64,000 nt of DNA. It comes from Escherichia coli. GTDB lineage: Bacteria; Pseudomonadota; Gammaproteobacteria; Enterobacterales; Enterobacteriaceae. The first letter of the stretch is position 1; every line of letters begins with the position of its first letter. Below the pieces are notes generated by a model. It had not been told where the DNA came from. It saw only the letters and a list, made by a program, of their open reading frames with translations, and did no database searches. This document shows positions 14,375 to 16,805 of the stretch, piece by piece. The position numbers were made by a program, and so were the translations under genes. The stretch lies in assembly GCF_003334765.1 (NCBI RefSeq), contig NZ_QOWT01000007.1; one strand, written 5' to 3'.

Positions 14375-15991
14375 ATGCTCAGTCAAATTCAACGCTTTGG
14401 CGGCGCGATGTTCACGCCAGTGCTGCTGTTTCCCTTCGCCGGGATTGTGGTGGGTCTTGCCATCTTGCTGCAAAACCCGATGTTTGTCGGGGAATCACTG
14501 ACCGATCCGAACAGTTTATTCGCGCAAATCGTACACATTATTGAAGAGGGCGGTTGGACGGTATTCCGTAATATGCCGCTGATTTTTGCTGTCGGTTTAC
14601 CCATTGGCCTTGCTAAGCAAGCGCAGGGGCGTGCTTGTCTGGCGGTGATGGTGAGTTTCCTGACCTGGAACTATTTCATCAACGCGATGGGAATGACCTG
14701 GGGAAGCTACTTCGGCGTCGATTTCACTCAGGACGCGGTGGCAGGTAGCGGTCTGACAATGATGGCCGGGATTAAAACCCTCGATACCAGCATTATCGGC
14801 GCAATTATCATTTCCGGCATTGTGACGGCGCTGCATAACCGTCTGTTCGATAAAAAACTGCCGGTTTTTCTCGGCATTTTCCAGGGGACGTCTTATGTGG
14901 TGATTATCGCCTTCCTGGTGATGATCCCCTGTGCCTGGCTGACGTTGCTCGGCTGGCCAAAAGTACAAATGGGGATTGAATCTCTGCAAGCGTTCCTGCG
15001 TTCGGCGGGTGCACTTGGGGTCTGGGTTTACACCTTCCTCGAACGTATTCTGATCCCAACCGGTTTACACCACTTCATCTACGGACAGTTTATCTTTGGT
15101 CCGGCAGCTGTTGAAGGCGGCATTCAGATGTACTGGGCGCAGCATCTGCAAGAGTTCAGTTTGAGCGCCGAGCCGCTGAAATCGTTGTTCCCGGAAGGCG
15201 GTTTTGCCCTGCACGGTAACTCAAAAATCTTTGGTGCCGTGGGCATTTCTTTAGCGATGTACTTCACTGCCGCACCGGAAAATCGGGTAAAAGTGGCGGG
15301 CTTGCTGATTCCCGCAACCTTAACCGCCATGCTGGTGGGAATTACCGAACCGCTGGAATTTACCTTCCTGTTCATTTCACCGTTGCTGTTTGCGGTACAC
15401 GCCGTGCTGGCGGCCTCAATGTCGACCGTAATGTATCTCTTTGGTGTGGTGGGCAACATGGGCGGAGGTCTGATTGACCAGGTTTTACCGCAAAACTGGA
15501 TCCCGATGTTCAGCAACCACGCGGATATGATGCTGACCCAAATCGCCATTGGGTTGTGCTTTACCCTGCTGTACTTCGTGGTTTTCCGCACACTGATTCT
15601 GCAGTTCAACATGTGCACGCCGGGACGTGAAGATGCGGAAGTGAAACTCTACTCAAAAGCCGAATACAAAGCCTCGCGAGGCCAAACCACCGCGGCAGAG
15701 CCAAAAAAAGAGCTGGATCAGGCTGCCGGTATCCTGCAAGCCCTGGGCGGGGTCGGCAATATCTCCAGCATTAACAATTGCGCGACGCGTTTACGTATTG
15801 CACTGCATGACATGTCACAAACGCTGGATGACGAAGTCTTTAAAAAGCTGGGAGCGCACGGCGTCTTCCGTAGTGGCGATGCCATTCAGGTGATCATTGG
15901 TCTGCATGTATCTCAGCTGCGTGAACAGCTCGATAGCTTAATTAATTCTCATCAATCAGCAGAAAATGTTGCCATTACGGAGGCAGTATAA
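14375..15991 (+). CDS. glvC: PTS glucoside-family permease, fused EIIC-EIIB (GlvC-like)
   Basis: 538 aa from ATG 14375 (RBS AAGAGGA); multi-TM EIIC domain followed by an EIIB domain with the phosphorylation-site motif NCATRLR; continuous reading frame. Confidence 0.8.
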
Positions 15992-16805
15992 TGACCAAAT
16001 TCTCAGTGGTTGTCGCAGGCGGTGGAAGCACCTTTACGCCAGGCATCGTGTTGATGCTCCTGGCGAATCAGGACCGTTTCCCGCTTCGTGCACTGAAATT
16101 TTATGATAACGATGGTGCGCGGCAGGAAGTGATTGCCGAAGCCTGTAAAGTCATCCTTAAAGAAAAAGCGCCGGACATTGCGTTTAGTTACACCACCGAT
16201 CCTGAAGTGGCATTCAGCGACGTTGATTTTGTCATGGCGCACATCCGCGTCGGCAAATACCCGATGCGCGAACTGGATGAAAAAATCCCGCTGCGCCACG
16301 GCGTTGTTGGTCAGGAAACTTGCGGACCCGGCGGAATAGCGTACGGCATGCGTTCCATTGGCGGCGTCCTGGAACTGGTGGATTATATGGAAAAATATTC
16401 ACCAAATGCCTGGATGCTCAACTACTCCAACCCGGCAGCCATTGTCGCAGAAGCCACGCGTCGTCTGCGCCCGAATGCGAAAATCCTCAACATCTGTGAC
16501 ATGCCAATCGGTATTGAAAGCCGGATGGCGCAAATTGTTGGGCTGCAAGATCGCAAACAGATGCGCGTGCGCTACTACGGCCTGAACCACTGGTGGTCGG
16601 CGATATCCCGCAGTTTCAGAAAGGGTTAATGAGTCAGCAAGTGGCGGTGGAAAAACTGGTCGTGGACGCCTGGGAACAGCGTTCATATCAGCACCTGTGG
16701 CAGGCGATTACGTTGTCGAAAACGGTACCGAGCGCCTCGGTCGCCAAAGCTATTCTGGATGAGTTGCTGGAGGCCAACAAAGCGTACTGGCCAGAGTTAC
16801 GTTAA
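15991..16805 (+). pseudogene. glvG: 6-phospho-alpha-glucosidase (GH4, GlvA/GlvG-like) disrupted by an internal deletion of roughly 170 codons
   Basis: N-terminal fragment 15991..16629 (212 aa, [20 protein letters not shown]...YYGLNHWW) and C-terminal fragment 16593..16805 in a different frame ([16 protein letters not shown]...WPELR); both align to B. subtilis GlvA by memory, with the middle third missing. Confidence 0.75.

Follow-up and report, generated by a model that had tools for sequence, protein, structure and literature searches.

The glv region of an Escherichia coli genome (assembly GCF_003334765.1, contig NZ_QOWT01000007.1) lies at positions 14375 to 16805 of the 64,000-nucleotide stretch analysed here, which is called the window throughout. 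It contains glvC, a gene for an alpha-glucoside permease of the phosphotransferase system (PTS), followed by the remains of glvG, a gene for a hydrolase of family GH4. With a probability put at roughly 0.9, the region represents the commonest state of a decaying alpha-glucoside PTS operon, in which the hydrolase was lost through an old 508-bp deletion that recombination has shuffled and in which the permease gene is whole. The feature is an already known and widespread pseudogenised operon, and the only departure of the window from the known picture is that it lacks the amber codon that interrupts glvC in K-12. (According to a passage of PMC5309279, which cites Reizer et al. 1994, the glv operon of K-12, with its truncated glvG, has been described as cryptic since 1994.) For biology at large the finding has little significance, since the truncated glvG of K-12 has long been in the literature and the window allele is the commonest natural one.

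The region is the E. coli copy of an enterobacterial alpha-glucoside PTS cassette, composed of a divergent regulatory gene, yidP, and then glvC-glvG, with the pathway broken at the hydrolase and the permease still encoded in one open frame. The parts of glvC and glvG that bear on this reading are as follows.

14375..15991, plus strand: glvC, alpha-glucoside-type PTS EIIC-EIIB permease, 538 amino acids, intact open reading frame (ORF), no IIA domain.
15086..15088, plus strand: GlvC codon 238, CAG (Gln); CCG (Pro) in orthologues and in most E. coli alleles with an intact glvG.
15479..15481, plus strand: GlvC codon 369, CAG (Gln); TAG (amber) in K-12.
15779..15781, plus strand: codon of Cys469 (in NNCATRLR), the cysteine of the EIIB phosphorylation motif NCATRLR, which starts from residue 468.
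15991..16591, plus strand: N-terminal remnant of glvG, authentic codons 1-200 of a 440-codon gene for a GH4 6-phospho-alpha-glucosidase.
16584..16591, plus strand: deletion junction, the lone remaining copy of the 8-bp direct repeat GAACCACT.
16584..16805, plus strand: C-terminal remnant of glvG, 73 authentic codons and a stop, its frame one base off that of the N-terminal remnant.

The glvG gene, which spans 15991-16805 and whose ATG overlaps the glvC stop (TAATG), is without 508 bp (169 codons plus 1 nt); the loss appears as a single gap when the gene is aligned with the alleles of BL21 and O157:H7, the references used for intact glvG. At the same place these two strains have a gene of 1323 bp, annotated as a 6-phospho-alpha-glucosidase of 440 amino acids, in which the 508-bp block is bounded by two direct repeats of GAACCACT. 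The product of the intact E. coli gene matches, over its full length, both chain 6DUX_A (a 6-phospho-alpha-glucosidase; 914 bits), which we take to be the structure of Klebsiella pneumoniae AglB, and 1U8X (Bacillus subtilis GlvA, a maltose-6'-phosphate glucosidase; 747 bits). Thus glvG in its complete form would specify an NAD+/Mn2+-dependent 6-phospho-alpha-glucosidase of family GH4, orthologous to AglB and GlvA. (The opposite scenario, of a short ancestral gene that gained the extra segment in the intact alleles, was set aside, since many genera have full-length orthologues.) The boundaries of the lost block are of the kind expected of replication slippage or of illegitimate recombination at short homology, and a deletion between the 8-bp repeats by one of these routes would fit such a repeat-bounded loss. 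The right-hand repeat runs into a Chi-like sequence, ACTGGTGG, which is still present at 16589-16596.

Within the window, the N-terminal ORF of glvG (15991-16629) has 212 codons, and it runs out of frame from the junction until its end at 16629; a GTG-started ORF of 70 codons (16593-16805) lies in a different frame and belongs to the C-terminal remnant, which is equal to the C-terminus of BL21 glvG and ends in YWPELR. An earlier note made on this DNA from its letters had described a GH4 gene broken into pieces of 212 and 70 codons with about 170 codons missing, and this description holds; its placement of the junction at 16596-16600 does not, the true position being about 10 nt to the left (16584-16591). 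The same note took 'NHWW' for authentic N-terminal sequence, which in fact ends at His200, 'WW' being already out of frame. The N-terminal remnant retains GGGS at residues 10-13 (the NAD+-binding GxGS motif), Cys169, Asp170, and His200; the deletion takes out residues 201-367, some 167 core residues that include the central substrate-binding region and Tyr263, the counterpart of GlvA Tyr265 in the alignment. In GlvA, Tyr265 is presumably the catalytic tyrosine, and Cys171, Asp172, and His202 are presumably residues that bind Mn2+ and the substrate; these roles are reportedly due to Rajan et al. 2004. A full-length GH4 frame was looked for in 15991-16805 and none was found, the 508 bp being absent; the window gene has no continuous frame of about 440 amino acids with the Glyco_hydro_4 and Glyco_hydro_4C domains. 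The Prokaryotic Genome Annotation Pipeline (PGAP) calls glvG a pseudogene in all of the deletion genomes that were inspected. To judge from its sequence, then, no active GH4 enzyme can be encoded by the window glvG. Given the 508-bp loss and the frameshift, sugar 6-phosphates imported by GlvC could not be split by GlvG, and it is reasonable to suppose that a working GlvC would load the cell with a sugar phosphate lacking a hydrolase.

How common this state is was determined among 5426 complete E. coli genomes, in which the locus was scored as present when at least 80% of a 2601-bp query (window 14300-16900) was held. The locus is carried by 4270 genomes and the 508-bp segment is kept in 1650, so that intact glvG, for which the earlier note had suggested a search, is plentiful; by difference, about 2620 genomes have the deletion. 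This corresponds to about 61% of the locus-bearing genomes and to about half of all sequenced E. coli. The configuration of the window is the commonest E. coli allele and is not special to the window. The identity of the deletion was checked in 16 genomes spread evenly down the ranking (15 non-K-12 strains and BW25113), and the same 508-bp loss was found in all 16, in 8 by the alignment gap and in 8 by the lengths of the locus and the remnant; glvC is intact in every one of them except BW25113. Another group of about 1150 of the 5426 genomes lacks most or all of the locus. In one strain, 2017.09.02CC, yidE is followed by yidL after about 90 bp (5905-5995 of the locus piece), and yidP, glvC, and glvG are missing together. 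The three classes of E. coli (cassette absent, intact, and hydrolase-deleted) should predict the use of sucrose isomers and other alpha-glucosides by the glv route.

The permease gene of the window is continuous. From the ATG at 14375 to the TAA at 15989-15991 there are 538 codons and no internal stop; the frame break that would have undone the description of glvC in the earlier note, as one continuous EIIC-EIIB frame with the NCATRLR motif, was looked for and is not there. The Pfam domains of the 538-residue product are PTS_EIIC (10-346) and then PTS_EIIB (453-482), with no other. The GITE motif occupies residues 322-325, and Cys469 is invariant in the four orthologues used for cross-genus comparison, which come from Enterobacter hormaechei, Citrobacter rodentium, Erwinia tasmaniensis, and Proteus faecis. 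GlvC is 70-80% identical to the EIICB proteins that adjoin a GH4 gene in these four genera. Against the NCBIfam model for alpha-glucoside-specific IIBC proteins (TIGR02005) it scores 954.7 bits, where the cut-off is 607.3, and the match is full-length, with residues 2-523 on positions 1-524 of the 524 in the model. Together with the Pfam domains and the alignments to intact alleles, this bears out the gene identities proposed in the earlier note, which named an EIICB permease for alpha-glucosides and an internally deleted phospho-alpha-glucosidase of family GH4. The nucleotide sequence of glvC is that of the allele in strain HH35 (product WP_000952141.1), which is identical to the window across 14300-16900.

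The earlier note also gave, as uncertain, separate GlvC (368 amino acids) and GlvB (161 amino acids) proteins for K-12 and took the split to imply a frame break that is absent here. The two products and the absence of the break are correct, and the cause is a different one. When the 2601-base query was compared with K-12 derivatives, the sole difference from BW25113 within 14300-16900 was at 15479, C in the window and T in BW25113; W3110 likewise has one mismatch. Since T at this position turns codon 369 into TAG, the GlvC/GlvB split of K-12 is due to a nonsense codon. Single-base alleles were counted with 55-mers in which the single-nucleotide polymorphism (SNP) is central, so that each 28-base seed covers it; the amber allele (T) is found in 348 genomes, which are K-12-type laboratory strains in the 40 matches listed, and the C allele in 3926. 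CAG at codon 369 is the ancestral and majority state, and the amber codon was acquired separately in K-12. For K-12, PGAP annotates glvC with an 'internal stop' and the downstream gene as 'frameshifted'. The NCBIfam equivalog model NF007255 ('PTS sugar transporter subunit IIB', 161 positions) matches GlvC residues 378-538 from Met378 (window 15506-15991). This model covers only the GlvB span that the amber codon created in K-12, and it probably explains why PGAP gives the name 'subunit IIB' to the full-length EIICB in all inspected genomes, and why thousands of genomes have that name. Glutamine is also what glnV (supE44) amber suppressors insert. Because the ancestral residue is glutamine, such suppressors should restore the wild-type protein, and common cloning strains with supE should remake some wild-type, full-length GlvCB.

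A second codon of glvC also varies. Codon 238, which stands 5 residues past the conserved HH motif of EIIC (residues 232-233), specifies glutamine in the window and in K-12; proline at this position is invariant in the orthologues of the four other genera and is present in 6 of the 7 sampled E. coli that have an intact glvG. Gln238 was counted in 1792 genomes and Pro238 in 2482, so that Gln238 accounts for 42% of the locus-bearing genomes. As read from the sequence, P238Q is a non-conservative change beside the conserved motif. (Gln238 co-occurs with an intact glvG in strain FCI56.)

Taken together, these comparisons leave several other accounts to be weighed against that of an operon decaying after one old deletion. 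An artefact of sequencing or assembly in the window, as the source of either the deletion or the missing amber codon, deserves practically no credence: the deletion is deduced in about 2620 complete genomes and CAG is seen in 3926, and HH35 has the same sequence over the whole query. This explanation was rejected because the same structures recur in thousands of independent assemblies. It is just as improbable, to the point of being negligible, that the glvG fragments still make a working enzyme, whether the two pieces complement each other or ribosomes shift frame at the junction. Open frames do persist in both remnants (212 and 70-73 codons), and the conserved residues named above survive in the N-terminal one; however, the lost core includes Tyr263, the C-terminal remnant has no family in NCBIfam, and in other strains the remnants have undergone loss of the start codon, a change in the GGGS motif, and a stop codon. 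With core residues absent and the remnants decaying elsewhere, the split-enzyme explanation was also rejected. More substantial are the observations that weigh against the favoured reading itself, which concern the left flank of the deletion and the state of the permease gene. The divergence among deletion alleles reaches about 1%, and its pattern is mosaic. Over a set of SNPs that lie 143-293 nt left of the junction, the type shared by the window and K-12 has alleles in common with the intact genes of 4973 and BL21, other deletion alleles match the intact gene of FCI56, and intermediate combinations exist. The deletion is thus found on at least two left-flank haplotypes, each of which is also seen with intact glvG, and a single origin therefore needs recombination close to the deletion. 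This pattern could instead mean that the site is a recurrent hotspot, at which the 508-bp deletion between the GAACCACT repeats arose more than once, perhaps aided by Chi. In line with this, a perfect Chi octamer, GCTGGTGG, adjoins the left repeat (positions 605-612 of the intact glvG gene in BL21, 4 nt inside the lost block), and, with a 6-nt loop permitted, the repeats lengthen to GAACCA...CTGGTGG. The junction, however, is identical everywhere, and deletion alleles that are mosaic at the same sites are what recombination within old polymorphism produces; the adjacency of Chi was seen post hoc and is treated as such, because Chi is frequent in E. coli (12 copies in the 64-kb window). Recurrence is accordingly considered improbable, and one old deletion, shuffled by recombination, is the simplest reading.

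The state of the permease gene raises another question. Neither the window nor any of the 15 other non-K-12 deletion genomes sampled has a broken permease gene, the sole disrupted glvC in the sample being that of the K-12 laboratory lineage. Among variants private to the deletion group, glvC has 12 that are synonymous and 6 that are non-synonymous, well below the roughly 3:1 non-synonymous excess of neutral decay; some selection may therefore still act on the permease gene, as opposed to simple decay. In the adjacent glvG remnants the private variants of the same group are 1 synonymous and 5 non-synonymous, among them M1V, a G11A change within GGGS, and a stop codon, which is as expected of a dead gene. 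The difference between glvC and the remnants gives p = 0.06 by Fisher's test. On a rival reading, GlvC would be an orphan permease, kept by selection for a use that is independent of GlvG; possible uses include uptake of glucose, uptake of an alpha-glucoside that is processed, once phosphorylated, by an enzyme other than GlvG, and a role in PTS sensing or regulation. If it was so retained, an alpha-glucoside EIICB without its partner would have a hydrolase-independent function (such as scavenging of glucose or alpha-glucosides through another hydrolase, or PTS signalling), and the amber codon of K-12 would be an exception of the laboratory lineage. However, the numbers are small and the tests non-significant, and many of the polymorphisms are older than the deletion and have been moved by recombination. 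In the group with intact glvG, moreover, glvC has 31 synonymous and 4 non-synonymous private variants, so that the non-synonymous share is 6/18 in the deletion group and 4/35 in the intact group (Fisher's test, p = 0.07), which suggests relaxed constraint. The glutamine that replaces a proline invariant in four genera, in 42% of locus-bearing genomes including the window, also argues against a permease held under selection, as does the failure to find a consensus promoter (a simple sigma-70 consensus scan of 13950-17000 gave 0 sites, where 2.5 were expected). These sequence counts suggest that the glvG remnants decay freely and that glvC keeps some, possibly relaxed, constraint. That GlvC serves a purpose of its own is rather doubtful, and there is perhaps one chance in several that purifying selection has held it intact in about 2300 natural E. 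coli long after the death of the hydrolase. The operon is probably silent, and presumably without expression or function.

The preferred reading, of a widespread operon that has lost its hydrolase, agrees with what is known of related systems. In K-12, glvC-glvB-glvG occupy the same site, between yidP and yidL, and have the same 508-bp deletion in glvG; the difference is that TAG at codon 369 yields GlvC and GlvB in K-12, whereas CAG in the window yields a single EIICB of 538 amino acids. The intact E. coli alleles (BL21, O157:H7, ATCC 8739, and about 1650 genomes overall) have the same cassette and neighbours and are 98.7-99.1% identical to the window in the parts that they share, but they keep the 508 bp, encode the 440-residue hydrolase, and mostly have Pro238. 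The aglA-aglB genes of Klebsiella pneumoniae, for a PTS of alpha-glucosides and sucrose isomers, have the same architecture, an EIICB without IIA and then a GH4 phospho-alpha-glucosidase; in contrast, the hydrolase gene of the window is a deletion pseudogene. In the literature the K-12 glv genes have been called homologues of aglA/aglB (PMC5309279), and glvBC is given as the alpha-glucoside PTS EIICB in a table based on EcoCyc (PMC10305011). The maltose operon of Bacillus subtilis, glvA-glvR-glvC (malA-malR-malP), encodes a homologous GH4 enzyme and an EIICB of the same TIGR02005 subfamily, but its gene order and regulator are different: in the enterobacterial cassette the regulator gene is divergent and of the GntR/HutC type. 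The GlvR protein of B. subtilis is an activator of the RpiR type. By these likenesses, E. coli glvC would be the orthologue of Klebsiella AglA and of B. subtilis MalP/GlvC; we infer both the substrate range of GlvC and its dependence on EIIA-Glc (Crr).

Upstream of glvC lie the divergent gene and the region that may control both.

13363..14079, minus strand: yidP, GntR/HutC-type regulator, 238 amino acids, divergent from glvC; candidate repressor of glv.
14080..14374, no strand assigned: intergenic control region between yidP and glvC, 295 bp, which holds the near-palindrome and the conserved box.
14196..14229, no strand assigned: near-palindrome AGAGGTCTACTTTTTCG/CGAAAACGTAGATCTCT, 34 bp, candidate YidP operator.
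14246..14264, no strand assigned: conserved box CATGAAAGCGATCACGAAT, CATGA-N6-TCACG, similar to a CRP site (7/10 to TGTGA-N6-TCACA).

In sequence yidP does not differ from its K-12 counterpart, whose annotation is that of a regulator of the GntR family. In NCBIfam, YidP has full-length matches to models of the HutC type (PhnF, HutC, and TreR), all of them below the equivalog cut-offs, and its orthologues, which are 53-77% identical over their full length, have the Pfam domains GntR and UTRA. A divergent GntR+UTRA gene stands directly upstream of EIICB-GH4 in all four of the other genera, and in Erwinia tasmaniensis and Proteus faecis the outer neighbours of the cassette are wholly different. 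This synteny, and the loss of yidP-glvC-glvG as a unit in strain 2017.09.02CC, support the suggestion of the earlier note that yidP is the local regulator, and YidP may repress the glv operon. In PMC9308461 it is counted with the E. coli transcription factors whose function is unknown. In contrast to yidP, the AraC-type gene yidL is not part of the travelling cassette and accompanies yidK-yidJ. (In BL21, yidP is annotated as frameshifted [2143-2780 of the locus piece], and glvC and glvG are both intact; if YidP is a repressor, BL21 might express the alpha-glucoside pathway constitutively.)

The near-palindrome at 14196-14229 has arms of 17 nt that are 88% complementary and no spacer. An operator conserved across the genera was sought in the upstream regions, and the palindromes were found to differ from genus to genus, the E. 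coli one being specific to E. coli; the assignment of this element as the YidP operator is therefore weak. The only element of the intergenic region that is conserved across the five genera is the ATGA-N6-TCAC box: when the upstream regions from E. coli and the four other genera are aligned, ATGA and TCAC never vary, and the remainder of these regions is poorly conserved (mean column identity 55%). Control by CRP through the box at 14246-14264 would be consistent with this conservation. In 13950-17000, terminator-like sites did not exceed their frequency in shuffled sequence, and a search of 13000-18000 against Rfam at gathering thresholds gave no RNA family. The PADLOC defence models gave no matches to GlvC, the GlvG remnant, or YidP. 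A 'potential SOS box' is ascribed to glvB in published gene lists (PMC6590174), and glvB is modestly up after DNA damage (PMC11002266). SOS control was considered and dropped, as a scan of 13300-17000 for sites resembling TACTG(TA)5CAGTA gave only a CTG-N10-CAG, 10/20, inside glvG, and thus no convincing LexA box within the operon or upstream of it.

Further changes are seen near the locus and in individual strains. The window is without 159 bp that are present in K-12 and HH35 between two CTGGCGGC direct repeats (region 19509-19530, junction at about 19517-19524), and with them the window has lost the final part of yidK and the beginning of yidJ, a sulfatase gene, which leaves a read-through ORF, yidK-'yidJ, of 650 codons (17862-19814). 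It is a second deletion at short repeats, 3 kb from the one in glvG, and its junction is matched in one piece in other natural strains, among them ML35, FORC 064, and an O157:H16 strain. Mobile elements have also entered the region elsewhere: CFS3292 has an IS5-like element, ISKpn26, inside the glv region; FCI56 has a remnant of an IS200/IS605 tnpA and a TnpB gene in place of most of yidL (4011-5087 of the locus piece); and in 1332KP, glvG is interrupted by a TnpB gene.

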